Below the pieces are notes generated by a model, which saw only the letters and a program-made list of their open reading frames with translations, ran no database searches and was not told where the DNA came from. Shown in pieces: positions 12,031 through 37,011 of a DNA stretch of 64,000 nucleotides. Position numbers and translations under genes: made by a program. Source of the stretch: Pirellulales bacterium. GTDB taxonomy: Bacteria; Planctomycetota; Planctomycetia; Pirellulales; JAICIG01. The stretch is from positions 53,134 to 117,133 of the forward strand of contig DASZTS010000014.1 in assembly GCA_035547915.1 (NCBI GenBank). Direction: 5' to 3'. Position 1 is the first letter of the stretch. Each line of letters begins with the position of its first letter.

Positions 12031-12052
12031 TTTGGAGCCGGACGAACAACAA

Positions 12053-12212
12053 TTCCCTCTCCCTTTGGGAGAGGGTTAGGGTGAGGGCGGATCGCCCGCT
12101 CTTGCATCGTTGATTCTCTTCGGACGTGGCTGGCGTTTTCGCTGAGCAAGAGACGACCCTATTGGTACTTTCAGCCGCCCTCACCCCGTCCCTCTCCCGA
12201 AAGGGAGAGGGA
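12053..12212. repeat. ~160-bp palindromic element (CCCTCTCCC...GGGAGAGGG family), copy 1
   Basis: Terminal mini-hairpins CCCTCTCCC-TTTG-GGGAGAGGG and CCCTCTCCC-GAAA-GGGAGAGGG. Long-range inverted repeat GGGTGAGGGCGG / CCGCCCTCACCC. Near-identical copy at 54203-54356. Confidence 0.8.
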
Positions 12213-12247
12213 GTAGTACTGCCGATGTTTTTTTGTTCGTTCCTTAA

Positions 12248-12321
12248 CGGCGTGTAGGAAAGCCTGGGACTCCGCGTGCGTCGGGAGCACGAGATCGCCG
12301 GTTCAAATCCGGCCACGCCGA
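12248..12321 (+). tRNA. tRNA-Pro(CGG)
   Basis: C1:G72 acceptor CGGCGTG/CACGCCG, anticodon arm CGTGC-GTCGGGA-GCACG, T-arm GCCGG-TTCAAAT-CCGGC. A T-rich tract follows. The serine recombinase gene ends 18 bp downstream. Confidence 0.8.
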
Positions 12322-21524: not shown

Positions 21525-22715
21525 ATGCCTACGTGTCTTTCAGATGCCAAAGCCCGCAATGCCAAGCCGAGACCTAAGCCATACAAGATAGCGGACGGCG
21601 ATGGGTTATTCCTCGTAATCATGCCGTCGGGCAGTAAATACTGGCGGCTCAGGTATTTCTTCGGTGGCAAGGAAAAGCTCCTGGCGTTGGGGGTCTACCC
21701 TGACATCAATCTCGCCGATGCTCGTGAACGGCGTGCGGCGGCCCGAAAGGTTCTTGCAACTGGGAGCGATCCCGCTGAAGTAAAGAAAGAGGCCAAGCGG
21801 GTCGCGACGCTCAAAACGGCCAACGCCTTTGAGGTTGTAGCCAGGGAATGGTTTGCGAAACGCAAGCACGAATGGGCGGCCATCACCGCCGACCGAGCGC
21901 TTGGTCGTCTTGAGGCATATATTCTTCCCAAGCTGGGACAGAGACCGATTGCGGACATTACGCCACCTGAAGTCCTTGCTATGCTTCGAGCAGTTGAGGA
22001 CAGAGGCACGTTGGAGACTGCACATCGCCTCATGAACATTTGCAGCCAAATCTTCATGTATGCAATCGCCACCGGTCGAGCTGAACGTAACCCTGTTCCT
22101 GATCTGCGCGGTGCGTTAAAAACTCCTGTTGTGAAACATCGTTCATACCTAAAGGAAGCCGAACTACCAGAATACCTGAAGAAGCTCGGTGTCTACGATG
22201 GTAGTCCGCAAACGAAGCTGGCGCTGCGATTGCTCTTGCTGAGCTTCGTTCGCACGACCGAGTTGCGAGCAGCACAATGGAGCGAGATTGATTGGGACAA
22301 GGCGGAGTGGCGAGTTCCGGCCGAGCGAATGAAGATGAAGGAGTTGCATATCGTTCCATTGTCGAAGCAAGCACTCGCTGTTCTCAGGGAATTGCAGAAG
22401 CTGTCTGGCGATCGGATGTATGTTTTTCCGAATGAACATACCCCCAGCACCTTCATGAGCGAAAACACGATGCTGTACGCGCTTTATCGCATGGGTTATC
22501 ATTCCCGTGCTACCGGACACGGTTTTCGCAGCACGGCCAGTACGATCCTGAATGAACACGGGTTTCGGCCGGATGTAATCGAACGGCAGCTTGCCCATAG
22601 TGAGCAGAACTCCGTGCGGGCTGCCTACAATCATGCTCAATACCTGCCGGAACGCCGAAAGATGATGCAATGGTGGGCCGACTATCTTGATAAAGCTGCC
22701 AAGAAGAAGAAATAG
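21525..22715 (+). CDS. int: Tyrosine integrase (P4-type, DUF4102 arm-binding N-terminal domain)
   Basis: N-terminus KPYKIADGDGLFLVIMPSGSKYWRLRYFFGGKEKLLALGVYP. C-terminal catalytic R...HxxR...Y (HGFRSTASTILNE...AAYNHAQY). Confidence 0.9.
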   Translation: MPTCLSDAKARNAKPRPKPYKIADGDGLFLVIMPSGSKYWRLRYFFGGKEKLLALGVYPDINLADARERRAAARKVLATGSDPAEVKKEAKRVATLKTANAFEVVAREWFAKRKHEWAAITADRALGRLEAYILPKLGQRPIADITPPEVLAMLRAVEDRGTLETAHRLMNICSQIFMYAIATGRAERNPVPDLRGALKTPVVKHRSYLKEAELPEYLKKLGVYDGSPQTKLALRLLLLSFVRTTELRAAQWSEIDWDKAEWRVPAERMKMKELHIVPLSKQALAVLRELQKLSGDRMYVFPNEHTPSTFMSENTMLYALYRMGYHSRATGHGFRSTASTILNEHGFRPDVIERQLAHSEQNSVRAAYNHAQYLPERRKMMQWWADYLDKAAKKKK

Positions 22716-22745: not shown

Positions 22746-22979
22746 TCAGTGAGGCCGCCAACGGGTAGATGCCCGTGGATCGTGGAATTCCTCCACCGCC
22801 ATCTCCGCCCAGGCACTGTAGAGTGTCCGGATGCCGGCATCGCTCTGATCGACTTGCCGTGCGAGGCAGCAGACCAGGTGCTGCACAATAGTGGCGTGCG
22901 CCTTGATCCGCCTTTCCAGTTCGTCAGGGCTCTTGCACTTCGCCAGCATCCATGCCATTACGACATCAGCCTCGTCCAT
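22746..22979 (-). CDS. Hypothetical protein
   Basis: ORF downstream of 22966-23529. The 5' end of the listed ORF overlaps its neighbour, so a shorter version starting at an internal Met is likelier. Confidence 0.3.
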   Translation of the reverse strand: MDEADVVMAWMLAKCKSPDELERRIKAHATIVQHLVCCLARQVDQSDAGIRTLYSAWAEMAVEEFHDPRASTRWRPH

Positions 22980-23529
22980 GACCATCCTCCATTCCGACTG
23001 TTCCCCGCAAGAACCCCGGAGCCTTCTTGCTAAGCCACTCCCTGATTGCCTGATGTGACTCAAATTCCGCGACTTCAATGCTGTCGATCGTCGGGCCGTT
23101 TTCGCCCACCCTGCTGATTTCGTCGTCACTCATTTCACGGATGAACAGCACTCGGTGACGCTGTAACCCGGCGTGCGTCAGGTTGATCGCTCCTTCGTTC
23201 AGTGGCTTGGCGAGGTTGCTGCCTCTGATGAGGACGACATACACGACGGCCGAATTGAACGTGAGCAGCAAGCCCTCCGAGGGATCGTATTTCCACGGCC
23301 CCATGATGGAGTATGGAAACCACATGCTCCCGCCGTTCCTGAAACGAAGCTCCAGCGCCGCCGACTGGTCCCGCAATCCCCGCAGGTAGCCAAATGCCAA
23401 CGACGACGCTTCTCCTTCGTCGGTGTCCGCGTCTTTCGACTGCAATATCCCACTCAGGCCCGGCGGGGCTCCCCCGCGTTTAAGGCGATCCTGTATGAGA
23501 CGATCCTGATGTGTGGTGTCATCCGGCAT
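22966..23529 (-). CDS. Hypothetical protein
   Basis: 187-aa ORF coupled (overlap) to the relaxase gene stop. No recognised motif. Confidence 0.45.
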   Translation of the reverse strand: MPDDTTHQDRLIQDRLKRGGAPPGLSGILQSKDADTDEGEASSLAFGYLRGLRDQSAALELRFRNGGSMWFPYSIMGPWKYDPSEGLLLTFNSAVVYVVLIRGSNLAKPLNEGAINLTHAGLQRHRVLFIREMSDDEISRVGENGPTIDSIEVAEFESHQAIREWLSKKAPGFLRGTVGMEDGHGRG

Positions 23530-26185
23530 GGTCCAATCCTCGATCCGGGGTTAAATCCTTCCCCGCTCCGAATACCGACAGTCCGCGTTCAATCGCCAGC
23601 CGCTTCAGCCGGTCTCGCAGATTCGCCTGCCGGGGTGCGGTTTCTGCAAGTTCGGTCGCCGACATCGGCTGGTCGGTCCGGCTGATTGCCTTGAGCAGCC
23701 CGAGATGGTCATCGGTGTACACCACCGCCTGCTCTTTGCCGCGTGTGAGCGCCACATAGGCGGTTCGCTGGTTGGTCGCGGGCAGCGATTCGCTGCCGAT
23801 GGCGACGAACACCTTATCCACCGTCGCCCCCTGACTGGCATGGCTCGTCGTGCAGTAGCCGTGCGTCAAATGCCCGAAATCCTTATCAATGATCCAGCCG
23901 TGATCGACGATGATGTCGCCACGTTTCGTAAAACCGTGGACGCTGAACAACGAGCCGTTGCTCAGGCGGTGCTTGCCGTCTCTGGTTTTGCCACCCGCCG
24001 TAATGCGGATACGGTCGCCTGCCGCCAGCGGCAACGCGACTGGCCGGTACACCTCGAACCGATCGGCAAGTTTCGTCGGTATTTCAGCCCCTTCGCTCAC
24101 CATCAGCCGCGATCCTTTGGTGTAGCCCGGTGAATTCTGCTGGAACTGGAGCAGGTAACCGGGCTCGTATTCGGTGGCGTCGGCTTTCTGTGCGTCGGTC
24201 AGGTGCGCCGGCACCCAGGCACCGACCATCCGCTCCTTGCCTAGCCGACCTTGACCGGCCAGCCCGGCACGGACTGCCGCCGTAACGCGGTCGCCTTCGA
24301 CGTGCGTTGGCGAAACGACCAGTGCCGACTTGTAATCTCCGTTCTTCTTCTTTTCGGAAGCGGCCGACAGGTACGCATCGGCAAGTGTCTGGTAGCGGTC
24401 TTTATCCGCTACCTGCCTGATCCAGCCGAGCTTATCGAGTTCATCGAATGCTTCCACGGCCCGGCCTTCGCTCAATAGTTTTGCAGCCTTTTTGTAATCG
24501 CCCTGCTGCCGCAGGATTTCAGTCATCTCAGCCACACGCAGGCCCGCATTGTCTTCGAGCAGCCGCAACGGTTCGCCTGCCGTCACACTCCGGTGCTGCC
24601 GGCGGTCGCCGACCAGCACCACGCGGGCCTTCAAGTCTTCGGCCACGTCAAACAGCTTGAGCATTTCCTTTGTCCCAAGCTGGCTGGCTTCATCCACCAG
24701 CAGCACGCCGCCCCGCGCAGATTCCTGCATCTCCTTGTCCTTGAGGAAGCGGGCCACGGTGTCGGCATCCTTGAACCCGGCTTCGTTTCGCAGCACTTCG
24801 CGGCTGGCTTTCACGGACTGCGCCATCGCCACCACCGGCTTGCCGGCTTCGGCCAGTGCCTCGCCGATTTCCTGTTCGAGCGTCGTCTTTCCGGTTCCGG
24901 CGACGCCGCGAATCAGAGTTACGCGGTCGCGGGAGCCCAGCACATGCCGCACCGCTGCTTTCTGGTCGTCGTTCAGCCATTCGCGGGAGAATGGACGCTC
25001 CGGGTTGCCAAGCGGCCGGAAGCGGCCGCGTCCATCGCGGGCGAATGCGATCAATTGCGATTCCATGTCCCGCATGAGCTTCGTGGTCGCCATCTTGCGG
25101 CCATCGACATCCTTGCGAATGAGCGGCCGGCTGGCGACTTCACGGGTTACGTCTTCCACGGTCACGCCGCCCAGGCCCCGCTTCAGGGCTTCTGTCACCA
25201 GCGCGCGTTCCGGCACCACCGCCTCACGCACGTAACTGTGCTCGATCGCATGGTCCACCGCTCCCGCTTCGCCATGCACCAGCCGGACATCGACACGCTC
25301 ACGGCGATGGACCGATGCCAGTACCTGCCGTTCCGGCTCCGTGAGTCGCCCGTTCCATTCCTTGCGAAGCTCTTCCCAGCCAAGCGGCTTGCCTTTCTTT
25401 TCACGGGTTTCGGCCCCAAGCTCGGCCTTGCGGTCAGGATTAGTGATCCCTTTTTCCGCTGCCACCTTCTCGATGAGCGTCGTTCGCCGCGAATAGCGTT
25501 GCAGCACATCCTTCGGGATTCCCGCGATCTCAAAGTCGTCGCGTTTCCGCTCGACGCCGAAGCCCAAATCCTGAAGCTTGTTGGCCAGCCGCACGCGGAA
25601 TGCCGCCTGAAAATACGGGGCATCCCGCTTCAGTTCGCGGAACTGGCCGGCTTTCCACCGTTCTTCCCGCTGGTCCCACGTGGTATTGAAGGCGAATACG
25701 TGGGCGTGCAACTGCGGATCGGGCACGCCATCGACCGGCCGCGTTGTCGTGTGGATGAATTCGGCCCACACCATGTTGCCGGTCGTGCGGTCCTTATCCT
25801 GCCCGGCCCTGCGGACGCGGGTTTTCATTTCGCTTTCAATCTCGGTCATCGTGTCATTGACCGCACCACGAAAGGCATCCATGATTCCCTGATCGCCGCT
25901 CATGGCGTAAAGCACCGACACCGACTTGGGCACGGAGAAGGTGAAGTCGTACCCGACCGTCCGATCCGTGCGCGTCCTGACCGTGAGTTGCTTACCGGTC
26001 CTTGGATCGAGATTGTCGCAGAGCCGCTCGAAGGAGAATTTGTCTACGGTGCCTTCCAGTCCCAGACGCGACGCGGCTTTTCCACCCCAGGAGCCGACAA
26101 TCTCCTGCCCTTCGCTGTAGTAATCTGCCGTGGTGTAGTATTGCTTGGCAGCCCCGGCACTATCCTGTTGCGTGATGCGGATCAT
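23519..26185 (-). CDS. MobF-family relaxase / TrwC-TraI-like relaxase-helicase
   Basis: N-terminal TrwC relaxase motifs (MIRITQQDSAGAAKQYYTTADYY, HAHVFAFN). C-terminal P-loop helicase (LIRGVAGTGKTT, VLVDEASQL, VGDRRQ). Confidence 0.9.
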   Translation of the reverse strand: MIRITQQDSAGAAKQYYTTADYYSEGQEIVGSWGGKAASRLGLEGTVDKFSFERLCDNLDPRTGKQLTVRTRTDRTVGYDFTFSVPKSVSVLYAMSGDQGIMDAFRGAVNDTMTEIESEMKTRVRRAGQDKDRTTGNMVWAEFIHTTTRPVDGVPDPQLHAHVFAFNTTWDQREERWKAGQFRELKRDAPYFQAAFRVRLANKLQDLGFGVERKRDDFEIAGIPKDVLQRYSRRTTLIEKVAAEKGITNPDRKAELGAETREKKGKPLGWEELRKEWNGRLTEPERQVLASVHRRERVDVRLVHGEAGAVDHAIEHSYVREAVVPERALVTEALKRGLGGVTVEDVTREVASRPLIRKDVDGRKMATTKLMRDMESQLIAFARDGRGRFRPLGNPERPFSREWLNDDQKAAVRHVLGSRDRVTLIRGVAGTGKTTLEQEIGEALAEAGKPVVAMAQSVKASREVLRNEAGFKDADTVARFLKDKEMQESARGGVLLVDEASQLGTKEMLKLFDVAEDLKARVVLVGDRRQHRSVTAGEPLRLLEDNAGLRVAEMTEILRQQGDYKKAAKLLSEGRAVEAFDELDKLGWIRQVADKDRYQTLADAYLSAASEKKKNGDYKSALVVSPTHVEGDRVTAAVRAGLAGQGRLGKERMVGAWVPAHLTDAQKADATEYEPGYLLQFQQNSPGYTKGSRLMVSEGAEIPTKLADRFEVYRPVALPLAAGDRIRITAGGKTRDGKHRLSNGSLFSVHGFTKRGDIIVDHGWIIDKDFGHLTHGYCTTSHASQGATVDKVFVAIGSESLPATNQRTAYVALTRGKEQAVVYTDDHLGLLKAISRTDQPMSATELAETAPRQANLRDRLKRLAIERGLSVFGAGKDLTPDRGLDHAG

Positions 26186-26260
26186 GCCTCATTTTACCGT
26201 ATCACATTAACGTTAACGAAATGTTAACGCTTTTGTGCTCCACCGCAGTTTTCCTTGCTT
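26186..26260. other. Candidate oriT (AT-rich region with reiterated TTAACG/GTTAAC palindromes immediately upstream of relaxase gene)
   Basis: Sequence ATTAACGTTAACGAAATGTTAACGC at 26206-26230 in an otherwise GC-rich context. Confidence 0.35.
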
Positions 26261-26320
26261 TGCGAGGATTCGATTTCCTAAATATCACCGGCGCGCCACC
26301 GCAACGTCACACCTACGCCG

Positions 26321-26405
26321 CGCGTCCGGTTACACAGCGTGCCGCTTACTTCAACGGCCTTTTGCGTCGCCGCTGGACACTTAGGTACGCCCACGTTCGC
26401 CTTTC
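26321..26405 (+). repeat. 85-bp direct repeat, copy 1 (flanks oxygenase-like cassette)
   Basis: GCGTCCGGTTACACAGCGTGCCGCTTACTTCAACGGCCTTTTGCGTCGCCGCTGGACACTTAGGTACGCCCACGTTCGC is ~92% identical to 27341-27425. Confidence 0.8.
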
Positions 26406-26583
26406 ACTGGATCACTCACTCCATCAGCACCATTACCCTTCTTACAGCACATACCATCCAGTTGAGATTCGTTCGCAACTCCGTCCATACACCGTGTCTT
26501 GCCGCTTTACTCTTTGCTGGCCCTCTGCTATAGCACCTTCGTTTGTCAATAATCCGTGCCACCTCATGCAAGCACACACGACT

Positions 26584-27330
26584 ATGGATCACATGAACTT
26601 TGCTCATGCTCGTTTCGATTACGAGCCTTATCCTATCTGCTATATCCCTGACTTTCTCAGCCCTGCGGACTACGAAGCGTTGGCCGACACCTATCCGTCG
26701 CTCGACAGCTTCAACCATAAGCCGATGCTTGGAGACAAGTATTCCCTCGCTGAGGGGAACAACGCCGACTTTTACTTCCGTTTCCTCCACGACAATCCAT
26801 GCTGGCTGGAATTCTATAACCGCATAAAAAGCAAGGCGTTTGTCGAAGAAGTCCTCACCCTATTGAAGAACAATTACATCGACTTGGGAATCGGTGACTT
26901 TAGACTTACACGCAGTACCAGTGGGGGTTGGAGTGATTTGTTGGCCCGTGCTTTTACAACGAATACCCTACGCACGCGATTTGAGTTTTCAATCATGTCG
27001 GCCGACGGCGGCCACATCCTGCCGCATACCGACGCTGAAGCAAAGCTTGTGACCATCGTTGTATCGTTCATCAGGGGTGGAGAATGGCAAAGCGAATGGG
27101 GAGGGGGCACGGACGTCTTGACACCCGCGGACCCGACCAGCGTGTTTGCCAGAGCGAATCGTCGTTTGCCTTTTGACAAAATGCGGGTTTCTAGGACATT
27201 ACCGTTCGCCCCAAATCAGGCCGTGCTCTTTGTCAAGACATACAACTCCTGGCATGCTGTTTCGCCAATGCACGGCCCGCCTAATGCGGTCAGAAAGACC
27301 GTCACGATCAACATCGAACGCCTGATGTGA
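26584..27330 (+). CDS. Putative 2OG-Fe(II) oxygenase-fold protein
   Basis: HxD...H-like arrangement (ILPHTDAEAK ... SWHAVSP). Lower GC than its surroundings. The upstream part of the listed ORF 26221-27330 covers the repeat and is probably not coding. Confidence 0.45.
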   Translation: MDHMNFAHARFDYEPYPICYIPDFLSPADYEALADTYPSLDSFNHKPMLGDKYSLAEGNNADFYFRFLHDNPCWLEFYNRIKSKAFVEEVLTLLKNNYIDLGIGDFRLTRSTSGGWSDLLARAFTTNTLRTRFEFSIMSADGGHILPHTDAEAKLVTIVVSFIRGGEWQSEWGGGTDVLTPADPTSVFARANRRLPFDKMRVSRTLPFAPNQAVLFVKTYNSWHAVSPMHGPPNAVRKTVTINIERLM

Positions 27331-27340: not shown

Positions 27341-27425
27341 CGCACTGTCGATGTCCGCCATGCGTCCGGTTACAAATCGTGCCGCTTTCTTCAACGGCCT
27401 TTTGCGTCGCCGCTGGACACTTTGG
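27341..27425 (+). repeat. 85-bp direct repeat, copy 2
   Basis: See copy 1. Confidence 0.8.
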
Positions 27426-27698
27426 TACGTCCACGTTCGCTTCGGATCGAACCACTGTCAGCGTTTCATCGCGTGAGCAGTTTCTTCCACGCCCATGAAT
27501 TCCTGCTGGCTGCATGTAATGTAAACGATGACGCTTTCTGCGTTGCCGACGCCTTTCCGGTTTCCCATTGTCGTTACTGAGCTTGCAGGACTGGATTTCA
27601 CCATGCTGGTCACATGGCGTCATGCCTTCTTCGGGCTTTAAGCCGTCCGGGACACACGCGGCCTCACTTCGGGACTCTTAAAGCCGCCGCCGGTCCGC

Positions 27699-27749
27699 GC
27701 AAGCAGAAAATCGGTTCCCCCTGAAGGTCTCCCCCAATTTTCCGCTTGC
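27699..27749 (+). promoter_or_regulatory. Conserved hairpin element, copy A (12-bp stem, 27-nt loop TCGGTTCCCCCTGAAGGTCTCCCCCAA)
   Basis: Stem GCAAGCAGAAAA / TTTTCCGCTTGC. Lies ~100 bp upstream of the ATG at 27848. Second copy at 31693-31743 has compensatory stem changes. Confidence 0.6.
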
Positions 27750-27847
27750 CCGGTACGCATGCGCCCCGGACTCAAGCGGCTTTTTCTGTGCAGTCCCGTA
27801 AGGCCGCGATGGTCGCGGCCGGAAACTTAAATCAGAAGGAGAACACC

Positions 27848-28108
27848 ATGTCACAACCAGCACACAAAATCCGTACCGGCGTCCTGCAAGTCACGATCTG
27901 GAGAAACCACGGCGAAAGAGGCAACTGGTACAGCGTCATACCGAGCCGCAGCTACAAGCAGGAGGACGCATGGAAGGAAACCGACAGTCTCGGTTTCGAT
28001 GACCTGCTGACAATGGCCAAACTATTTGACCTCGCTCACACGTGGATCATGCACCAGCAGCAGGCCGACGCCAAGGGCCGTAAGGAAGCGGCGAAGGCTG
28101 CCGCCTGA
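27848..28108 (+). CDS. Hypothetical protein
   Basis: RBS AAGGAGA then ATG. 86 aa. Confidence 0.45.
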   Translation: MSQPAHKIRTGVLQVTIWRNHGERGNWYSVIPSRSYKQEDAWKETDSLGFDDLLTMAKLFDLAHTWIMHQQQADAKGRKEAAKAAA

Positions 28109-28176
28109 GCCGGACGCCGGCGGGCTACGGCCCGCCGGTTCCATTTTAAATCAACCATTCAGAAAGGAATGTCAAA

Positions 28177-28590
28177 ATGAACACGTTCAACGATCGTTTA
28201 CCCGCCCGCTTTGATGATTATGAAATCCAGCCGTGCCGCCGCTACATCGACGCGGACGAGCCTGAGCTGTCCTTCGTCGAACCGTGCGAAGCCGTCGAGG
28301 CGGATTTCTGGACGCTTTACGGCCACGTCAACGGCGAGGGCGCTCACGCCATCGGCGATTTCCACGACCGCAAGCACGCCGAGGAAGTCTACGCCCGGAT
28401 TACCGGGCTGGAGTTCACCGGCTCCGGAAAGGCCGACGCTCACCTTCGCGTCATGCACGCCGGGCCGAAATTGCTGGAAACCCTGATCGCGGCATCCGAC
28501 TGGATCAATGCCCAGCTTGGAAAACGCCGCACTGACATACAGGCAATGGTGCAGCAGGCCATCGCCGAAGCGACCGGGAGGGCAGCATGA
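28177..28590 (+). CDS. Hypothetical protein
   Basis: RBS AAAGGAA then ATG. 137 aa. Coupled to the next ORF. Confidence 0.5.
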   Translation: MNTFNDRLPARFDDYEIQPCRRYIDADEPELSFVEPCEAVEADFWTLYGHVNGEGAHAIGDFHDRKHAEEVYARITGLEFTGSGKADAHLRVMHAGPKLLETLIAASDWINAQLGKRRTDIQAMVQQAIAEATGRAA

Positions 28591-29018
28591 CGAACGCAAA
28601 CTGCCTCGAAGGCATCCGCTGCCCGGCGTGCGGGCAGCAGGATCGTTTCAAAATCACTGCCCTCATCACCTGCCTTGTCACTGACAATGGCAGTGAGCCG
28701 GTTGGCGATCACGAATGGGACGACGACAGCAGCACCCATTGCCCGGAGTGTGGGTTCGATGGGAAGCTGAAATGCTTTCGCAAACGAAACCGATTGCCGC
28801 CCGACCCGGAGAACATGAACGGCAGCCGCGCCGCATGGGCGGCAGTTGCCCTGCGGGCTTTCATGGAAGTGACCAGAACCGACGAGGAAGACGCCCTCGG
28901 CGACCTGCTGGCCGACCTGATGCACTGGGCCGACCGAAACAACTTTGACTTCGAGTTGGCATTTGACCGTGCCCGCTGGCATTATGAGGCCGAGACCGGT
29001 GGACCACAGCCCGCCTAA
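28587..29018 (+). CDS. Hypothetical Zn-ribbon protein
   Basis: CPACGQQ...CPECGF cysteine pairs. ATGA overlap with the upstream ORF. Confidence 0.5.
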   Translation: MTNANCLEGIRCPACGQQDRFKITALITCLVTDNGSEPVGDHEWDDDSSTHCPECGFDGKLKCFRKRNRLPPDPENMNGSRAAWAAVALRAFMEVTRTDEEDALGDLLADLMHWADRNNFDFELAFDRARWHYEAETGGPQPA

Positions 29019-29149
29019 TTCACGGCCTTGCCGGGGCCTGCCGCGCAGGCCCCGGCGACCGCGACAAGTTTGATTGACTCGCTCCGGCCTTGGGTCTATA
29101 TCCATCGAGAGTGCCACGTCCGCCACCCGACGTGTGCCGACTGCCAAGG

Positions 29150-29377
29150 ATGCCGTACAGAATCAACATCGGCGACATGATCGCCTACACCGACACGTTC
29201 CTCGACCGCCAAAGCCGATACCACCCTGACATGCTCTCCGCACAGGGGAAAGTAACGGCGCTGCACCACCTCAATAGCGGCCAAATCCTGGCTGACATCG
29301 AATGGGACAAGCCCGGCCTCCCAAAGCGGGTCAACATCAAGTTTCTCATCAAAAAGAACGCTGCCTACGGAACATGA
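29150..29377 (+). CDS. Hypothetical protein
   Basis: ORF only. Confidence 0.3.
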   Translation: MPYRINIGDMIAYTDTFLDRQSRYHPDMLSAQGKVTALHHLNSGQILADIEWDKPGLPKRVNIKFLIKKNAAYGT

Positions 29378-30172
29378 CCGTTTATCCCTGCCAGTGGTTC
29401 CTTTTGTTCCAATCCAACCACCCTTCGTCCAACTGACCGAGCCTATGGGCACATCGCCATCCCGGCGACCACGTGCTCACGGGCTGCGCTCCGCTCCGGT
29501 CCTCTGCGAGGGACGGCTGTTGCCCCCTTACGCCCGTTTGTGCTGCGGCCGGCCGGCCTGATGCGGACACCTACGGTGCCGACGTTTTTTGACGGATGAC
29601 AGGGGAGCATCCCCAGCCCGTCAAGGACCGGGGCAAGCGACCGTTCGCGGCCCCCTCCCAACCTTCCGCGCTCGTGCCTCGCTTGTGCAGGTCGGTGCCC
29701 TCCGCTCCGGTCGTCCTATGACTGGCTCCCCCCTTTCACATCACGGGCTTTCGCCCCCCTTCCGCCGAAAAACGCTGTTCGCGTTTGCGTAAGGGGCCAT
29801 TCCAATCAAAGGCCCCGGAACATGCCGCCGCTCGTTGGCGGCTCCAGATACCAGCCCCGAACTGGCCCCCAGCCGATCGGCTGCATTATCACGCTATCCC
29901 CACGCGACCGCCGTAGCTGGCGGACGGCGGTTGGCCCGACCGGAGGCCACTGCATCCGGGAGGGATCGCGTCCTCCGCCACCCCATGCCTCACCGGCCTG
30001 TTTGCACCCTAATTCCATCACAACAGACGTGAGGTTCCTTCACAGGTTTTTGGTATGTTCCTAAAAAGTTTTTCCATCAGGCGTCTTCCCTATGCACAGC
30101 ATAGGCCCACTGGAACGGTTCCAGCCGGGAAGACGCCTTCATGCACGGCATTATTTGCCGGGCTCCGTGTGC

Positions 30173-30376
30173 TTAAGCGGGGCCTGCGAATATCCGCTTC
30201 CAGGCCCAGCACGCAAGAGCGCCGACAACGATGCCGACCACCATCCCGCCATTCAGAACGCCCCAGGCGTTGCCCAGCGGCGGGAAGAACGCCCAGCCGT
30301 AGTTGAGCGCCCCCAGCACTGCCAGGATAATCACCAGGCCGGCATCCCCTGCCTTCACACTGCCGATGCCCCTCAT
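30173..30376 (-). CDS. Small membrane protein
   Basis: 67 aa with two TM helices. ATGA-coupled to 30376-30576. Confidence 0.3.
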   Translation of the reverse strand: MRGIGSVKAGDAGLVIILAVLGALNYGWAFFPPLGNAWGVLNGGMVVGIVVGALACWAWKRIFAGPA

Positions 30377-30576
30377 CAGTGAAGTTTCCCCTGCTTCGCG
30401 TGCTGAAGGTCGTCAATGGCCGCACCAACGGACAGCCATACGGCAGCCCCTTTAACGTCGTCCCTTTGCCTAAGCTCGTTCATCTTCTGCCAGGCAAAGT
30501 CTGCGGCCTCAGTCCCAAACACCTGTATGAGCAGGTTTGCGGCACCGTACCTGTTTATGCGTCTGTAGCTATCCAT
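30376..30576 (-). CDS. Hypothetical small protein
   Basis: 66-aa ORF coupled to the downstream membrane protein. Confidence 0.3.
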   Translation of the reverse strand: MDSYRRINRYGAANLLIQVFGTEAADFAWQKMNELRQRDDVKGAAVWLSVGAAIDDLQHAKQGKLH

Positions 30577-31270
30577 AGGGCGGCATCATACGCCCTTTTA
30601 TCTGGCCCGGAAGTGATATTTCATCCGCTGGCGTTCGGCGTGGTTTTTCGTTGTCCTTGCCCGATAAACGGCCGCCGGCTCACCCTCGCAAGATGCCAAT
30701 TCTCGACAGCCGGAAACACCAGTGTTTCTGCGCTTCTCCACGCGCTGACACGCGGAGATGCCTTATTTTCTGCGGCTCTTGACGTGTTAATCCTCGCAAA
30801 CCAGCGGCCTGCCTATTGCGCAGCGATTTGAACAGTGGTACAATTTGCCTATGTCCATGCCTCCGACATATCACCTCAACGAGCTGGGTCCACAGGCCCA
30901 GATGATGTCGAAATCGTGCGGTAACGAGCGAATGGCGATGATCCTCCAATACGTCGCCCTTGGGTCCATGATCGTCATGGCCGGAGTTGCCGCAAGCCAG
31001 GTTCTGCGGGATGCGTTCGGTTCGTCCGATCATCGCGGAGGCCGCGGCTGGTCGAGGTGACCATGCCGCAGCATCCCATCCCGGACCTACGCCAGCTTCC
31101 ACGCCCTGACCAACGCCGGGCGCTCCCCATCACGCAGCGGACGGAGGCATACCCTTGACGTATGCCGAAGAAGCCGCCGTCGTGGGACCAGCCCACACTC
31201 TTTCCGCTTCACCCTGACGATTCACATGAACCGACAAATGATGTAACATCACCACCTAAAGGAGATGACG

Positions 31271-31585
31271 ATGCAGTACAAGACCATAGTTCACGAACTC
31301 CTGCAACAACAGACGGAGTTGCACGAGAGGCTGCGGCTGACACGCCGGCTCCTGCCGACGATCGAAACCTACGCCAAGGAACTGAAGGCCAGCCACGAGG
31401 AGTGGAAGGAAACGCTCTCGGAGGCGCGGCCGGACAGCGACCCGATCCAGATCAGCAGCGAAGCAATGGAGATGGCCGTTCAGGAAATGGAAGATCGTTT
31501 GCAGAACGAATCGCAAACGAACGACGAGGCGCTCTCCCTCGACGCGGCAATGGCGTTTCTCCGCAATCCTACGTCGCGCGGCTGA
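31271..31585 (+). CDS. Hypothetical alpha-helical protein
   Basis: RBS AAAGGAG 8 nt before the ATG at 31271. 104 aa with no low-complexity sequence. Overlaps, in another frame, the unlikely N-terminal extension of the large downstream ORF. Confidence 0.45.
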   Translation: MQYKTIVHELLQQQTELHERLRLTRRLLPTIETYAKELKASHEEWKETLSEARPDSDPIQISSEAMEMAVQEMEDRLQNESQTNDEALSLDAAMAFLRNPTSRG

Positions 31586-31692
31586 AGGCACAGCGATCGC
31601 TGTTTGATTCCTTCCCCGACGCACACTCTTCCGCCACGGCTGCCCCGCCTGGGGCTTTCAATGACGGCACGCTAATCAGCCCGCCGGGCCGT

Positions 31693-31743
31693 GCAAGCGG
31701 AATTCCGGTTCCCCCTGAAGGTCTCCCCCAAAATTCCGCTGGC
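31693..31743 (+). promoter_or_regulatory. Conserved hairpin element, copy B
   Basis: Stem GCAAGCGGAATT / AATTCCGCTGGC with the same 27-nt loop as copy A. Lies 97 bp upstream of the GTG at 31840. Confidence 0.6.
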
Positions 31744-31839
31744 ACGGTCGCTGCGCGAGCGGAGCCCCGGACCGGGGCTGATTCTTCCGCGAGCCGTCAG
31801 GCCCCAGTTGCGGGGCCGGTAACTAGAGGAGACCGCGAC

Positions 31840-34800
31840 GTGCAAGGAACACAGCTCAGCTTTCAATTAGACGTACCACCCATCCGTTTTGCCGCCCCGC
31901 CACCGGAGCAGACGACACCACGAAAACTTTTCACAGATCAACCACGGCCCGCACCAGCACCGGCGACGATTGCAAGCGGTGAGAAATCCAAGGCACGCGA
32001 CATCATCACCGCCATCCGCACGCTGAAGGCCATCGAGCAGGAGCAGCGGCCGGCCACCACCGACGAACGGCAAATGCTCGCCCGCTTCGGCGGTTTCGGT
32101 GCAGTGGCCCTGTCCATCTTTCCCGACCCGGTGACCGGCAAATACAAGGACGCCGGCTGGCAATCTCTCGGCGAAGAATTGCAATCGTTGCTCTCGCCCC
32201 AGGAATACGACAGCGCCAAACGCACCACCTTCAACGCCTTCTACACGTCACCCACCGTCATCGCCGGCATCCACGAGGCGATCAGCCAACTGGGCGTGCC
32301 CAACACGGCGACGATCCTGGAGCCAGGCTGCGGCACCGGCAATTTCATGAGCCAGGGCAAACCCGGCAACCACTTCATCGGCGTCGAACTCGATTCTATC
32401 TCCGGCCGCATCGCCCGTGCGTTGCATCCCGAACACGACATCCGCATCGAAAGTTTCCGCGACACGACGCTGCCCGAAAACCGCATCGACGCCGTGATCG
32501 GCAACGTGCCGTTTGCCGACGTGAAGCTCGACCACCACGGCCAGAAATTCTCCCTGCACGATTATTTCTTCGCCAAGTCGGTTGACGCACTGAAGCCCGG
32601 CGGGGTGCTGGCACTGGTCACGTCGCATTACACGCTCGACAAGCAGAATGCCGCGATCCGTGAATATCTTGCCGCCAAAGCCGATTTCGTGGGAGCGATC
32701 CGCCTGCCATCGGATGCGTTCAAGCGGGAAGGAACCGCCGTAGTGACCGACATCGTGTTTCTTCGCAAGCGGGCACCAGGGGAGCCGGCCAACCATGCAG
32801 ACAAGGATTGGCTGGGCATTGCCCCGCTGGCGATAGATGGCGCAGAGGTTCCGGTCAACCGCTACTTCCTGAACCATCCCGAAATGGTGCTGGGCACCTG
32901 GAGCCGCAAGGACACGCTCTACGGAGGCGAGGGATTCAGCGTCGCCGGCAACGGCGACCTTGAGGGCAATCTCAGGAAAGCCGTTGATCGGCTTCCGAAA
33001 TTCGAGCCGCTTCAATCCTCACCAGCCGAGGCCGAAGCCGTTCCGGCATTCACGCCGCCCCCGCAGCAGCGCCACATCAACGAAGGCAGTTTCTTCGTCG
33101 GCGACGACCGGATCATTTACCAGACCGACGGCGGCCAGGGTGTGCCCGTCGTCTATGGCGGCAGCACGCTGAGGGCTGACGGCAACCTGACCGGCAGGCG
33201 CATGGCCGCACTGATCGAGCTGCGTGACAAGGCCCGCCGGGTGCTGCAATCGCAGAATGAAGGCTGGCCCCAGTCGCACCGCGACGATGCACGCCGCGAA
33301 CTGAACCGGGCTTACGACCGCTTCGTCATGGCCTACGGCCCGATCAACAAGGCTTCCTTAAGTGAAACCAAAGACGGCAGCGTCATCCGCCGCACGCCCA
33401 ACCTTGTGAAATTCAAGGAAGACCCCGACGCCATGCTGGTCATGTCGCTGGAGAATTACGAGGACGAATCCGGCAAGGCGACCAAGGCCGCCATCATGTC
33501 GAGGGACGTGGTTGGCAAGAACCCGCCCATCACGCAGGTACGAAGCGCCGAGGAAGGATTGCTGGTGTCGCTCAATCAACGCGGCACGGTGGACCTGCCT
33601 TACATCGCATCACTCTACGGCAAGCCTGAACCGCAGGTTATCGACGAGCTGGGCGACCTGATTTTCCAGAACCCGCAATCGAAGGAATGGGAAACCGCCG
33701 ACGATTATTTATCCGGCAACGTGCGGTCGAAACTGGCCGCCGCCGACGCGGCAGGCCCGCAATACCAACGCAACGTCAGTGCTTTGCAACACGTGCAGCC
33801 CGAAGACGTGCTGCCCGGCGACATCGACGCCGGGCTGGGTGCCCCGTGGATACCGGCCGGCGACATCCAGGCATTTGCGGCCGAACTGTTCCACGTCGAT
33901 CCGGGCGCAGTCCCGGTCGCCCACCTGAAGAAAGATGCCGTCTGGAGCCTCGATGCCGGCTACGCCGCAAAGGCATCCGTCGCCGCTACGTCAGAATTCG
34001 GCACTCCACGGGCCAACGGCACCTGGCTGCTGGAAATGGCCCTCAACATGAAGTCGCCGACGATCTACGACACCATCCAGAATGGCGACCGCGAGGAGCG
34101 CGTCGTCAACCAGGAAGATACGATGGCCGCCCGCGAGAAACAGAAGCTCATCAAGGAACGCTTCCGGTCGTGGGTGTTCAGCGATCCCGAACGTACCGAA
34201 CGGCTGGTCCGCCTCTACAACGACACCTACAACAACCTGCGGCCCAGGCTGTTCGATGGATCGCACCTCGATTTCCACGGGATGAACCAGGCCCTCGCAC
34301 TCCGGCCGCACCAGAAGGATGCGGTCTGGCGTGGCATGAGCAGCGGCAATACGCTGCTGGCCCACCTCGTCGGTGCCGGCAAGACGTTCACGATGGCCGC
34401 GACCGGCATGAAGATGAAGCAGGCCGGGCTCATCAAGAAGCCGATGTACGTCGTGCCCAACCACCTGCTGGAGCAATTCGCCCGCGAATTCATGCAGTTG
34501 TACCCGAACGCCAAGCTGCTGGTCGCCGCCAAGGAAGACCTGACACGCGACCGCCGCAAGTTTCTGACGGCCAAGATTGCCAGCGGCGAATGGGACGGCA
34601 TCATCGTGACGCACAGTTCCTTCGAGCGGATCGGCATGTCGCGGGATTATCAGGAGAAATTCCTGCTGGAGCAGATCGCCGAATACGACGAGTTGCTCCG
34701 CGAACACGCCGCCGACAAGGGCAGCAACCGCAACCTCATCAAGCAGATCGAGAAGCAGAAGGCGGCACGGGCCGAGCGGCTCAAAAACCTGCTGGCCGAG

Positions 34801-37011
34801 GATAAGAAAGACGACGGGCTGGTGTTCGACGAACTGGGCGTCGATCACGTTTTCATCGACGAGGCCCATTACTTCAAGAACCTGGAGACGCCAACCAAGA
34901 TGGAGCGTGTGGCCGGCATCCAGACCGGCGGCTCCGAACGGGCGTTCGACGTGTACATGAAGGCCCGCTACCTCGACGAGCAGCACGCCGGCCACGGGGT
35001 CACCTTTGCCACAGGAACGCCGATAAGCAACACGATGGTGGAGATGTACACCATGCAGCGTTTCCTCGATCCAGAGGGCCTGAGAAGCCGGGGAATCGAG
35101 CATTTCGACGCATGGGCAGCCACCTTCGGCGAAGTGGTCGACACGATGGAGATTTCCCCGGACGGTGCCGGACTGCGGCCCCGCAGCCGGTTTGCCCGGT
35201 TCACCAACCTGCCGGAACTCCAGCAGATGTTTCGGGCATTTTCCGACGTGCAGACGGCCGACATGCTGAACCTGCCGCGGCCGACCCTGAAAGGCGGCAA
35301 ACCGATTGTGGTTGCCTGCCCGATGTCCGATGAGCAGCGGGAGCTGCAAGACGAGCTTGTCAGACGCTACGAACGGCTGCGGTCGGAGAAGATAGACCCG
35401 CGTGTCGATAACGCCCTGGCCATCACCACGGACGGCCGCAAACTGGCCACCGACGCCCGGATGCTGTCGGAGACCGCCCAGGACTTCACGGAATCAAAGG
35501 TTAACCGGCTGGTCGAAAACGTCTTTTCGATCTGGCAGCGGACCGCCCCGACGCGCGGCACGCAGATGATTTTCGCCGATATGGGCGTCAATCCGACCGC
35601 GTGGGGCTATTCGCCCTACGACGAGATCATCCGTAAGCTGGTCGCCCACGGCATCCCGCGTGAGCAGATCGCCACCATCGGCGACGCCGAATCCGACGCC
35701 AAGAAACAGGCATTGTTCGAGAAGGTCCGGCAAGGCTCGGTGCGCGTCCTGATCGGCAGCACGCAGAAAATGGGCACCGGCACCAACGTCCAGAAACGGC
35801 TGGCCGCCCTGCATCACCTCGATGCACCGTGGAAGCCGGCGGAAGTCGAACAGCGTGACGGCCGCATACTCCGGCAGGGCAACGAGAATAAGGAAGTCGA
35901 GATTTACCGTTACGTTACCGAAGGTTCCTTCGACGCCTACATGTGGCAGGCCCTCGAAACCAAGGCCCGCTTCATTGGTCAGGTCATCACCGGCGACAAC
36001 GCCGCCCGCCGCGCCGACGACATCGGTGGGCAGGAACTCTCCTACGCCGAGGTTAAGGCGATTGCCTCCGGCAACCCGGCCGTGCTCACGCTGGCCGAGG
36101 CCGACGCCGAGCTACAGCGGCTTAACCTCCTGAAAAAGAACCATCTCGACGAGCAATACGTTGCCCGCCGCAACGTGCGGGATTTACCGGCGACCATCAC
36201 CAGGCTGACCGACCGGCTCACGAAACTCACGGCCGACGAGGCGACCGCCACGGCCCACGCCGCCGAGCCGATAAGGATCGGCAGCCATTCTTATTCACGG
36301 GAGGACGCACCGGCCGTGCTTGCCAACCGGCTGGATGCAATGCCCGGCAACGTCCGCGACACCACCCGCGTGCCGGTGGGCACCTACCGGGGCCTGCAAT
36401 TCGGTCTGCTGCTGCATCCGCAGTTTCCGCCCGACGTTTACCTCGAAGGGGCGATCATCCGCCATACCGGGCTCTCCCGTGAGCACCAGGGACCGCGTGC
36501 AGTCCTGAACGCACTGGAACGCATCGCCGGTGCCTACGGCTCGGAATGTGTCGGAACCCGGCAGGAACTGGCGATTGCCGAATCGCAGCTACGCGACTAC
36601 CAGGCCCGGCTGGGCAAGCCGTTCCCGCACGACGCATATCTCTTGGAAATGACCGGACTCCGTGACCAGCTCAAGGCCGGCTTATCCGCCACGCCGCACG
36701 AAGCTGCCGAATCAGGGCCGACCGTTTCCGAACTGGCCGACCGGATCAAGGCGATCAAGGCCGCCAACACCATCGACGCCACGCCACAGCGCGTGCAGCG
36801 GAAACATGCAACTGCCGAAGAGCCAATCACCGCCCGCATCCGCCGGCGGCAGGAGGCCATGCCTACGCCCGACCAGGCGATTGAGCATGAGGAAGCACCG
36901 GAAGCAGTGGCAGCCACGACGCCGGAGCCGAATTCATCCGCAAGGCCGATGACCTTCCGGGAACGCATCCTGCGTGAACGGGGTCAGGCTGACGAGCACA
37001 CTCCGCAGTGA
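31840..37011 (+). CDS. DarB-like antirestriction N6-adenine DNA methyltransferase - SNF2/DEAH helicase fusion (~1720 aa)
   Basis: MTase motifs (ILEPGCGTGNFMS and GNVPFADVK, i.e. motif I and an NPPF-like motif IV). Helicase motifs (LVGAGKTFTMAATGMK, IDEAHYFKN, helicase-C QRDGRILRQGN). The listed ORF starts at 31162 but its first ~225 codons are low-complexity and cover the hairpin repeat. GTG at 31840 with RBS AGAGGAGA is the likelier start. Confidence 0.85.
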   Translation: MQGTQLSFQLDVPPIRFAAPPPEQTTPRKLFTDQPRPAPAPATIASGEKSKARDIITAIRTLKAIEQEQRPATTDERQMLARFGGFGAVALSIFPDPVTGKYKDAGWQSLGEELQSLLSPQEYDSAKRTTFNAFYTSPTVIAGIHEAISQLGVPNTATILEPGCGTGNFMSQGKPGNHFIGVELDSISGRIARALHPEHDIRIESFRDTTLPENRIDAVIGNVPFADVKLDHHGQKFSLHDYFFAKSVDALKPGGVLALVTSHYTLDKQNAAIREYLAAKADFVGAIRLPSDAFKREGTAVVTDIVFLRKRAPGEPANHADKDWLGIAPLAIDGAEVPVNRYFLNHPEMVLGTWSRKDTLYGGEGFSVAGNGDLEGNLRKAVDRLPKFEPLQSSPAEAEAVPAFTPPPQQRHINEGSFFVGDDRIIYQTDGGQGVPVVYGGSTLRADGNLTGRRMAALIELRDKARRVLQSQNEGWPQSHRDDARRELNRAYDRFVMAYGPINKASLSETKDGSVIRRTPNLVKFKEDPDAMLVMSLENYEDESGKATKAAIMSRDVVGKNPPITQVRSAEEGLLVSLNQRGTVDLPYIASLYGKPEPQVIDELGDLIFQNPQSKEWETADDYLSGNVRSKLAAADAAGPQYQRNVSALQHVQPEDVLPGDIDAGLGAPWIPAGDIQAFAAELFHVDPGAVPVAHLKKDAVWSLDAGYAAKASVAATSEFGTPRANGTWLLEMALNMKSPTIYDTIQNGDREERVVNQEDTMAAREKQKLIKERFRSWVFSDPERTERLVRLYNDTYNNLRPRLFDGSHLDFHGMNQALALRPHQKDAVWRGMSSGNTLLAHLVGAGKTFTMAATGMKMKQAGLIKKPMYVVPNHLLEQFAREFMQLYPNAKLLVAAKEDLTRDRRKFLTAKIASGEWDGIIVTHSSFERIGMSRDYQEKFLLEQIAEYDELLREHAADKGSNRNLIKQIEKQKAARAERLKNLLAEDKKDDGLVFDELGVDHVFIDEAHYFKNLETPTKMERVAGIQTGGSERAFDVYMKARYLDEQHAGHGVTFATGTPISNTMVEMYTMQRFLDPEGLRSRGIEHFDAWAATFGEVVDTMEISPDGAGLRPRSRFARFTNLPELQQMFRAFSDVQTADMLNLPRPTLKGGKPIVVACPMSDEQRELQDELVRRYERLRSEKIDPRVDNALAITTDGRKLATDARMLSETAQDFTESKVNRLVENVFSIWQRTAPTRGTQMIFADMGVNPTAWGYSPYDEIIRKLVAHGIPREQIATIGDAESDAKKQALFEKVRQGSVRVLIGSTQKMGTGTNVQKRLAALHHLDAPWKPAEVEQRDGRILRQGNENKEVEIYRYVTEGSFDAYMWQALETKARFIGQVITGDNAARRADDIGGQELSYAEVKAIASGNPAVLTLAEADAELQRLNLLKKNHLDEQYVARRNVRDLPATITRLTDRLTKLTADEATATAHAAEPIRIGSHSYSREDAPAVLANRLDAMPGNVRDTTRVPVGTYRGLQFGLLLHPQFPPDVYLEGAIIRHTGLSREHQGPRAVLNALERIAGAYGSECVGTRQELAIAESQLRDYQARLGKPFPHDAYLLEMTGLRDQLKAGLSATPHEAAESGPTVSELADRIKAIKAANTIDATPQRVQRKHATAEEPITARIRRRQEAMPTPDQAIEHEEAPEAVAATTPEPNSSARPMTFRERILRERGQADEHTPQ

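Follow-up and report, generated by a model that had tools for sequence, protein, structure and literature searches.

The stretch of DNA analysed here (the window; 64,000 nucleotides of contig DASZTS010000014.1, assembly GCA_035547915.1, from a Pirellulales bacterium) carries an integrated mobile element (an integrative and conjugative element, ICE), in which a non-coding module of ~180 nt occurs twice, directly before the gene of an 86-aa protein (module A) and before that of a methyltransferase fused to an SNF2-type helicase (the methylase-helicase; module B). Onward from the integrase and relaxase genes the order is module A, the 86-aa gene, small open reading frames (ORFs), a 106-aa gene, module B and the methylase-helicase. 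An earlier note on this DNA had described two short hairpins (copy A, 27699-27750; copy B, 31690-31743) and likened them to the single-strand promoters of conjugative leading regions. Both hairpins were found in place and with the letters given, including the exchange of AA/TT for TT/AA between their stems, and each strand forms the hairpin. The loops, said to share 27 identical nucleotides, agree at 26 of 27 positions (the first base is T in one and C in the other), while a 25-nt core (GGTTCCCCCTGAAGGTCTCCCCCAA) is indeed identical; it has exactly two matches in 64 kb, both on the plus strand, with none expected (100 shuffles). The hairpin ends 98 nt (A) before ATG 27848 and 97 nt (B) before GTG 31840, and both start codons are preceded by GGAG-type ribosome-binding sites, as the note had it. 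GTG 31840 is the true start of the methylase-helicase; in its homologues the start codon, ATG or GTG, occupies this alignment column, so that a 1949-aa ORF running from 31162 is an open-frame artefact.

The repeated unit is longer than had been noted. Copies A and B share 68 nt at 85% identity (direct repeat D2), and their likeness runs from ~60 nt 5' of the hairpin to the ribosome-binding site. We gathered 76 related loci, selected through the 86-aa gene, and on aligning 49 window-type copies a long-range complementarity emerged, which makes the short hairpin (H1) the tip of a conserved fold-back of ~180 bases. Its helix P0 joins ACGGCAC, ~40 nt 5' of the hairpin, to GTGCCGT, ~45 nt 3' of it (among the variants are ATGTCAC/GTGACAT, CGGGAC/GTCCCG in window copy A, GATGGCGC/GCGCCATC and GGGGTC/GACCCC); in P1, AAAGCCGCC pairs with GGCGGCTTT, again with many variants, and in P2 GCCGG pairs with CCGG(A)C. 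These three helices surround H1 and, with an optional side hairpin (P3), form a three-way junction; they are present in the minimum-energy folds of both window copies. A left flank (..CCCCGCC.GGGGCCTT) 5' of P0 is complementary to the region of a further hairpin, H2 (inverted repeat I9), and the whole fold-back therefore spans ~180 nt. On the 3' side, P0 is followed by 1-3 nt (AA or CA), H2, GGAAAC, the ribosome-binding site and the start codon. A short hairpin with a T-run 3' of H1 was considered as a terminator or attenuator and set aside, the T-run being the 3' strand of P1. The parts of module A and its gene are as follows.

27643..27822, minus strand: whole fold-back of module A (inverted repeat I9, 27643-27667/27798-27822; covariance-model match 27669-27798, 85.9 bits)
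27670..27675: left strand of P0, CGGGAC, pairing with GTCCCG at 27793-27798
27680..27693: left strands of P1 (AAAGCCGC) and P2 (GCCGG), with partners at 27776-27783 and 27766-27771 in the fold
27699..27750: H1 tip, identical with copy A, type I, loop 27715-27733
27802..27820, plus strand: H2, GGCCGCGA-tgg-TCGCGGCC, the predicted 5' end of the mRNA; then GGAAAC, ribosome-binding site 27837-27842 and ATG 27848
27848..28108, plus strand: 86-aa gene, followed by a terminator-like hairpin at 28116-28139

Those of module B are:

31644..31817, minus strand: whole fold-back of module B, between the 106-aa gene (end 31585) and the methylase-helicase (covariance-model match 31662-31798, 163.8 bits)
31663-31670, 31674-31682 and 31683-31688: left strands of P0, P1 and P2 (minimum-energy structure, model structure and pair counts)
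31791-31798, 31775-31783 and 31766-31772: right partners of P0, P1 and P2
31689..31747: H1 tip, containing copy B (31690-31743), loop 31709-31727
31750-31765: optional side hairpin P3
31800..31817, plus strand: H2, GGCCCC-agttgc-GGGGCC; then ribosome-binding site 31827-31832 and GTG 31840
31840..37011, plus strand: methyltransferase and SNF2/ResIII helicase, 1723 aa (Pfam and NCBIfam matches)

Module A occupies the gap between the start of a minus-strand ORF at 27623 and the 86-aa gene; its minus strand folds as DNA into a single long hairpin (-57 kcal/mol, z -5.65), as does that of module B (31628-31826; -62.5 kcal/mol, z -4.8). Both are thus large, stable, imperfect stem-loops on one DNA strand in intergenic sequence, the form known from the Frpo/ssi type of single-strand promoter.

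The pairing is maintained by evolution. For this analysis 53 type I copies were aligned with a covariance model (CM) built from 13 methylase-type copies. Paired cells make up 91.5% of the total vs 77.4% after shuffling (a value as high as the real one was reached in 0 of 500 shuffles), and 30-45% when the partners are slid. Double (compensatory) changes occur in 36 of 45 pairs; all pairs of P1 (9/9) and P0 (8/8) have them. Of the 19 pairs of H1, 11 show compensatory changes among aligned copies. H2 covaries too (GGCCGCG/CGCGGCC vs GGCCCCG/CGGGGCC), in all module types. The view of the earlier note that selection acts on the structure is therefore well supported, by very strong covariation once relatives are aligned. 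On the other hand, the interior of the tip falls into at least four unrelated sequence types (I-IV), with the lower helices kept and the outer stem (CCGGxCAAGC / GCTTGxCCGG) and its flanks constant across tip types. All Planctomycetota loci examined share a conserved region 5' of the 86-aa gene.

In the type I loop (27715-27733 and 31709-31727; ~50 loci) we also observed two direct C5 runs (GGTTCCCCC .. GGTCTCCCCC) and a T/C plus T/G pair of positions that seems to vary together (TT, CG or TG). None of the models considered below accounts for the role of this nearly invariant loop. An action of the C-rich loop as an anti-Shine-Dalgarno sequence was rejected, the complementarity being of 5-7 nt only and not kept across tip types.

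The copies are tied to gene starts. All searches found them co-oriented with the 86-aa gene, whether by regular expressions (108 copies), by a hidden Markov model (HMM) of the left arm (113 matches on the plus strand and 0 on the minus strand) or by the CM (89 plus-strand matches, its 6 minus-strand matches being weak mirror images). Each element has one copy before the 86-aa gene and 1-3 further copies, mostly 1-7 kb downstream, and the distance from a copy to the start codon is ~105-130 nt. The earlier note had linked the hairpin to the rightward genes and proposed a search for the loop motif; in the window and its relatives every copy proved to be co-oriented with its gene, and its distance to the start codon is fixed. 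Genes 3' of the further copies encode the methylase-helicase, a 57-81-aa protein, DUF7417, SLOG/YspA and DUF4326 proteins, and others. At least 16 loci have a methylase-helicase with a type I module ~115 nt upstream, always with the window-type tip. Such B-type copies always follow a conserved 106-aa gene. The left arm of A-type copies abuts variable sequence or a divergent ORF, which leaves little room for an upstream promoter; these ORFs are heterogeneous and mostly spurious-looking, and a common divergent gene beside A-type copies was discarded as a candidate. Overall, the modules stand upstream of, and co-oriented with, their operons, as Frpo/ssi sites do, and modules A and B contain no rightward sigma-70 match.

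Six loci lie on one Gemmataceae chromosome. Two Rhodobacteraceae metagenome-assembled genomes (MAGs; loci L074 and L076) encode distant homologues of the 86-aa protein (41-47% identity) behind another upstream region, which has its own hairpins and no module, so the module family seems confined to Planctomycetota. The 86-aa protein itself is unusually conserved and has ~800 homologues, of which the 120 best clusters listed are 80-97% identical; the named sources among those listed are a Planctomycetes MAG and an unclassified bacterium. Its AlphaFold2 model (pLDDT 92) has four strands and a long helix, and neither a known family nor a solved structure matches the protein convincingly.

Long inverted symmetry at the ends and the presence of several copies per element and genome are also what would be expected of a selfish miniature inverted-repeat element, or of a neutral repeat, with no role in its host element. 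We consider this explanation highly improbable, given the total strand bias, the fixed distance to the start codon and the covariation kept over ~90 diverged copies; furthermore, the CM found no module copies in the window away from these elements.

To find which strand folds, all copies were folded in a wobble-blind manner (wobble pairs disallowed, G.T and A.C treated alike). Among single mismatches inside helices, A.C then outnumbers G.T by 102 to 15 (in distinct contexts, 49 to 14), with a ratio of 1.0 predicted from the base composition of the module. The CM alignment, which itself favours G.U, still has A.C 51 vs G.T 29, C.T 70 vs A.G 18 and C.C 22 vs G.G 7. These counts place the least stable mismatches on the plus strand and the most stable ones on the minus strand. 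In agreement with this, the minus strand of the core is the stabler one in 53 of 53 copies with DNA parameters (by 4.8 kcal/mol on average, compared with 1.0 in control windows of the same loci). Mismatch types and DNA folding energies thus favour folding of the minus strand.

This pattern bears on a different reading, in which the module is a structured RNA made from the plus strand, that is, a 5' leader or intercistronic element serving as an RNase III processing site, an mRNA stabiliser or a switch. Plus-strand RNA folds are equally possible (-70 and -86 kcal/mol for the window copies). Moreover, the left flank and the 5' and 3' arms of H2 all covary, which makes two alternative pairings possible; in the switch version an upstream GGCCTT segment and the 3' arm of H2 would compete for the 5' arm of H2. 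The 106-aa gene before B-type copies is preceded by a sigma-70-like site (31221-31249) and followed by no strong terminator. For an RNA helix, however, G.U should be common and A.C rare, and the reverse is observed: on the plus strand A.C, C.U and C.C abound and G.U is rare. Neither a gene nor a promoter is conserved upstream of A-type copies, whose left arm starts in variable sequence. No family of Rfam 15 matches the modules: above gathering scores its only window matches are tRNAs, and none overlaps the modules at E up to 10. The processing hairpins of phage T7 offer a precedent, since RNase III cuts long, irregular hairpins between its early genes, including one before an anti-restriction gene. 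The modules resemble these as long irregular hairpins before successive genes; they differ in that T7 hairpins act in RNA, which the wobble statistics of the modules oppose for the plus strand, and in that A-type copies lack an upstream transcription unit. An RNA function also leaves unexplained that the tip is swapped for unrelated sequences while a sequence pattern described next (TTG-16-YA) stays constant. We therefore regard it as unlikely, though as deserving serious consideration.

The earlier note had asked whether the hairpin, folded as single-stranded DNA, would pair -35- and -10-like hexamers. Such hexamers do exist, in the lower stem and on the complementary (template) strand of the downstream genes; the noted 52-nt hairpin, where the promoter had been sought, is only the tip of the ~180-nt fold-back and has no -35/-10 pair. 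In a minus-strand profile of 99 modules, the three letters of TTG are found in 99, 99 and 84 copies, respectively. A spacer of 16 nt follows the TTG hexamer; it is G+C-rich and fully paired in P2 and P1. The -10-like hexamer after it begins with T or C in 93 of the 99 copies and has A as its second position (A at -11) in 81, and this T/C-A step sits exactly at the end of P1, where a small internal loop (bubble) starts. The sites in the window are:

27697..27702, minus strand: -35-like TTGCGC of module A (profile of 99 modules)
27675..27680, minus strand: -10-like TAAGAG of module A, 16 nt after the -35-like hexamer, at the boundary of P1 and the internal loop
31691..31696, minus strand: -35-like TTGCAC of module B
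31669..31674, minus strand: -10-like TAGCGT of module B, 16 nt after the -35-like hexamer

Methylase-type copies have TACAGT, TAGCGT, TAGAGT, TACCGT, TACGGT or TAACGT as the -10-like hexamer, with two exceptions (TACAGC). The overall match to the sigma-70 consensus is 7-9 of 12 in 56 of the 99 copies, on rules that are those of E. coli; as a control, the validated Frpo2 region of F (pOX38 sequence) reaches a similar value, 8 of 12 at best. TTG-16-YA holds in tip types I, II and IV (for type IV, e.g. TTGCGG-16-TAGGTT), while most type III copies were without an anchor in the profile and one judged by eye fits. A proximal UP element would fall on the A/T-rich inner stem of type I tips, the site of the AA/TT swap. 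A consensus scan found no rightward sigma-70 site inside modules A and B. TTGACC... in the right arm does not qualify as part of a rightward sigma-70 promoter, because its distance to any -10 varies with the P3 insertion, and sigma-54 (GG-N10-GC) and ECF-type (extracytoplasmic function; GAAC..CGT) promoters in the left arm were dropped for spacing that is inconsistent by eye.

The same hexamers do make a leftward promoter in duplex DNA, and a divergent ORF starts 10-100 nt from the left arm in some A-type copies. One could therefore take the module for a duplex palindrome, i.e. a long operator or divergent promoter for a dimeric repressor, with TTG-16-YA as an ordinary leftward promoter and the B-type copies as duplicated baggage. 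But the sequences of P0 and P1 vary freely with their complementarity kept, which points to base pairing rather than to a protein of conserved specificity. The best -10-like hexamers are those of B-type copies, which lack a leftward gene, the divergent ORFs are not one protein family, and TrwC has its own promoter adjoining its ATG. Such a role is very improbable in our judgement.

We tentatively favour, at somewhat less than even confidence, the interpretation that the modules are a new family of single-strand-DNA promoters or priming sites (single-strand origins), analogous but not homologous to Frpo/ssi. It draws on the observed fold, covariation, orientation, position relative to genes, conserved hexamer positions and strand asymmetry; from these we infer recognition by RNA polymerase, the start site, and that it is the minus strand which becomes single-stranded. 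In the proposed mechanism, the ~180-nt module would fold back once the DNA is single-stranded, the minus strand being the one that serves the downstream genes as template. Its arm on the 3' side would present TTGNNC, a paired 16-nt spacer (P2 and P1) and T/C-A at the edge of the small internal loop, a fold that may mimic a sigma-70 promoter with a pre-melted -10, with the A/T-rich inner stem of the tip as a possible UP element. The TTG arm of the minus strand would act as the non-template strand, and RNA polymerase would transcribe the opposite arm, moving from the tip down to the base, exit the hairpin rightwards and start the RNA at about AAGG/CAGG, just before H2. At its 5' end the mRNA would then carry H2 as a protective stem-loop, with the ribosome-binding site and the gene behind it, and the same RNA could prime synthesis of the complementary strand (the single-strand-origin function). 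In duplex DNA the hexamers would point leftwards and leave no rightward promoter, so expression of the 86-aa protein, the methylase-helicase and the accessory genes would be limited to a single-stranded phase, in conjugative transfer or rolling-circle replication.

Frpo/ssi single-strand promoters are known from the leading regions of IncF and IncI1 plasmids, in classes 1-3 (PMC12672017; PMC11541004); for Frpo the original source is Masai and Arai 1997, as cited in PMC9849209. In F and pESBL large stem-loops of several unrelated sequence classes, upstream of leading operons, are ssDNA promoters (PMC9849209, PMC12672017, PMC11541004), and pESBL has six of them, one before a methylase gene (PMC9849209, PMC12672017). 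The likeness proposed in the earlier note is real as far as arrangement goes, which mirrors Frpo1/Frpo2 of F and the pESBL promoters. The modules share with Frpo/ssi the large imperfect stem-loops in non-coding DNA directly before operons, all co-oriented with the genes, and the repetition within one element at intervals of a few kb (~5 kb between Frpo1 and Frpo2, which are 92% identical); the downstream genes are of methylase, anti-restriction-type and ssDNA-related kinds, the -35/-10-like hexamers are only moderately canonical (8 of 12 for the Frpo2 region), and a dual role in transcription and priming is proposed. To our knowledge, single-strand promoters have been established experimentally only in enterobacterial IncF and IncI plasmids, with structures taken from energy predictions. 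No sequence homology to Frpo/ssi was found, and blastn/megablast of the modules against the 72,556 plasmids of PLSDB gave no match; no likeness to plasmids or phages was found. Frpo2 is larger and more stable (~310 nt, -96 kcal/mol) than the modules (~180 nt, -57 to -62 kcal/mol), which differ further by the three-way junction with its optional side hairpin, the interchangeable tip and the -10 at a conserved bubble, and by their location in an integrated Planctomycetota element, with genes pointing away from the relaxase-proximal region that resembles an origin of transfer (oriT).

Single-strand origins (sso) are a second group for comparison. Rolling-circle plasmids have RNA-polymerase-dependent ones, and ICEBs1 has a functional sso (PMC4595007). 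Like ssoA, ssoU, ssoT and the sso1 of ICEBs1 (PMC4595007), which act strand- and orientation-specifically and only as ssDNA, the modules have extensive secondary structure that matters more than primary sequence, and folded sso DNA is often read by the host RNA polymerase as a promoter for making a primer. On the other hand, an sso is usually single and uncoupled from a ribosome-binding site or gene, unlike the modules, of which there are 2-4 per element in a fixed register with the start codon. The fold also recalls the attC sites of integrons, which are likewise strand-specific single-strand fold-backs bordering exchangeable genes, with a variable centre between conserved outer inverted repeats. 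However, attC sites are found on the 3' side of cassettes, where IntI recombines them, whereas a module lies 5' of its gene in register with the ribosome-binding site, and the integrase of this element is a phage-type tyrosine recombinase. The R'/R'' core of attC (GTTRRRY) is absent from the modules.

How the favoured interpretation fits the polarity of transfer depends on the region beside the relaxase gene, where we find:

21525-22715: tyrosine integrase, phage-type with an arm-binding domain
22966-26185, minus strand: 187-aa ORF and TrwC-type relaxase-helicase
23519..26185, minus strand: TrwC-type (MOBF) relaxase-helicase (PF08751, E 4.6e-72)
26186..26400: oriT-like conserved non-coding block, directly 5' of TrwC, partly repeated at 27356-27440
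candidate nick-region sequence: ..CTGGACACTTGGT.., complement ..ACCAAGTGTCCAG..

The conserved block 5' of TrwC looks, by its sequence, like an oriT. In it are the inverted repeat GTTAAC..GTTAAC, a TAAAAT -10 box that stands five nt from the ATG, CAACGTCAC and CTGGACACTTAGG; the motif of CAACGTCAC, CAATGTCAC, is present twice in most loci. Conservation stops after CTGGACACTTGG, beyond which the sequences diverge. The modules themselves are unlikely to be oriT, since they are duplicated before other genes. No match to the nick sequence of R388 was found with up to 3 mismatches allowed, and the conserved ..AAGTGTCC (minus strand, with a GTGTCC motif) presumably recalls MOBF nick cores. In most loci TAAAAT or TATAAT stands 5-7 nt before the ATG of TrwC, so that canonical -10 boxes are in use in these elements, which, like the Frpo2 control, supports applying the sigma-70 consensus to them; TrwC appears to be leaderless. 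This -10 box overlaps the GTTAAC..GTTAAC inverted repeat (26186-26200; ~30 loci). An 85-nt direct repeat with 92% identity (D1, 26316-26400/27356-27440) includes the CTGGACACTT.GG end of the oriT-like block and brackets a cargo gene resembling 2-oxoglutarate-Fe(II) oxygenases (26221-27330); it may have been left by an insertion beside oriT that a relaxase or recombination brought about.

The minus strand is G-rich in the TrwC genes (28/28 loci) and the methylase genes (16/16), which in the window is visible at third codon positions. Together with the mismatch asymmetry, the promoter geometry and, tentatively, the nick-core-like motif on the minus strand, this points indirectly to the minus strand. 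As a separate observation, the strand opposite the module genes is G-rich whatever the gene orientation (window 14000-38000; L001-L073), whereas the chromosome on either side of the element in the window has the reverse bias. In locus L010 the orientation of TrwC to the modules is inverted; tried as evidence on polarity, this locus was found uninformative, being a secondary inversion between two IS-like (insertion-sequence-like) repeats. There, TrwC and the 187-aa ORF are inverted between inverted repeats resembling insertion sequences or miniature inverted-repeat elements (4300-4690 and 7880-7940; GGGTGTGAAAC.ACCA.ATTCAC.CGCCTTCA), and the inversion truncates the oriT-like block.

A number of points weigh against the single-strand promoter interpretation. 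The strand effect is modest: between the two strands of the CM alignment there is a gap of only 0.9 points in the proportion of standard pairs, and module B in full length is equally stable on either (-62.5 kcal/mol for the minus and -62.2 for the plus strand, each one long hairpin). The -10-like hexamer is weak, with T at its last position (-7) in only 42-48 of 99 copies. The promoter-like site at 31221-31249 before the 106-aa gene could read through and place the whole B-type module in RNA. At -57 to -62 kcal/mol the modules do not reach the -75 kcal/mol cut-off used for pESBL, a value that applies to 300-nt windows. The main weakness concerns geometry. The earlier note had argued that the genes lie on the side of oriT that is transferred first, which is not sufficient: a Frpo-type mechanism needs the transferred strand as the template, and the genes should therefore point toward the nick. 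This is so in F (pOX38), where leading and tra genes run in one direction and the leading genes face oriT. The module genes, unlike those of F, diverge from the genes of TrwC and the type IV coupling protein and from the oriT-like block beside TrwC. Under the usual rule that transfer genes are the last to enter, the plus (sense) strand would be the one transferred and the modules would have no template. Finally, a survey that counted 29 MOBF relaxases in 21 planctomycete chromosomes notes that conjugation has never been shown in Planctomycetes (10.1101/2024.01.22.576637).

Two further possibilities bear on this polarity. According to one, to which we give only a small chance, the modules are single-strand promoters on the strand that is conventionally not transferred, in either of two versions. 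They might fire in the donor as the relaxase-helicase unwinds the element, so that the methylase-helicase and other factors would be coupled to DNA processing; or the relaxase end might be transferred first, which would put the modules at the trailing 3' end, where one primer would serve to copy the whole strand. According to the other, the plus strand forms a DNA-processing hairpin, either as primase- or PriA-type ssi priming sites that make the leading region duplex piecewise or as secondary sites of a relaxase or recombinase bounding gene cassettes. An oriT-like block on the TrwC side, with conservation ending at GGACACTTGG, fits a nick on the plus strand and modules in the leading region; the modules flank variable cargo, and an 85-nt repeat brackets a cargo gene beside the oriT-like region. 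However, the fixed register of H2, ribosome-binding site and start and the 113:0 co-orientation tie the module to expression, beyond priming alone. The mismatches make the plus strand the poorer hairpin, its arm has no -10-like element, and tips vary among elements with similar relaxases. We consider plus-strand processing improbable.

The rest of the element and its surroundings are briefly as follows. 3' of the methylase-helicase lie a helix-turn-helix (HTH) gene and a type I restriction-modification system. Further left, on the minus strand, are a ParB-like gene and the gene of the type IV coupling protein, which is split into overlapping ORFs of 288 and 423 aa (15106-17240), suggesting a frameshift or a decayed transfer gene. 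Two dense arrays of tRNA genes (11097-12321 and 50692-55860; 29 tRNA matches in total) bracket the island, and a serine recombinase gene (12303-13793) abuts the first of them. A gene at 44591-46555 fuses the helical domain of a 5-hmdU (5-hydroxymethyldeoxyuridine) DNA kinase to MazG domains, which suggests DNA hypermodification; beside it is an IrrE/M78 peptidase gene (47405-48286). Between the 86-aa and 106-aa genes, ~650 nt (29400-30050) are without a convincing ORF; this segment has a repeated motif (CTCCGCTCCGGTC, at ~29489 and ~29700) and C-rich runs, and no Rfam match.

Overall, ~90 diverged copies provide comparative proof, at the level of base pairs, of a single-strand fold in integrated MOBF elements of Planctomycetota that is new in sequence, architecture and phylum. 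The smallest conserved core that emerges from them consists of TTG, a 16-bp stem and YA located at a bubble, and the tip is naturally interchangeable. If either version of promoters on the non-transferred strand were true, conjugative DNA processing would be sensed by a new logic, and this in a phylum without demonstrated conjugation. If the single-strand promoter interpretation is confirmed, the covariance model could be used to find such elements in metagenomes, and the 86-aa protein, the methylase-helicase and the products of the other downstream genes would be flagged as establishment factors; the single-strand promoter strategy would then be either ancient or convergent.

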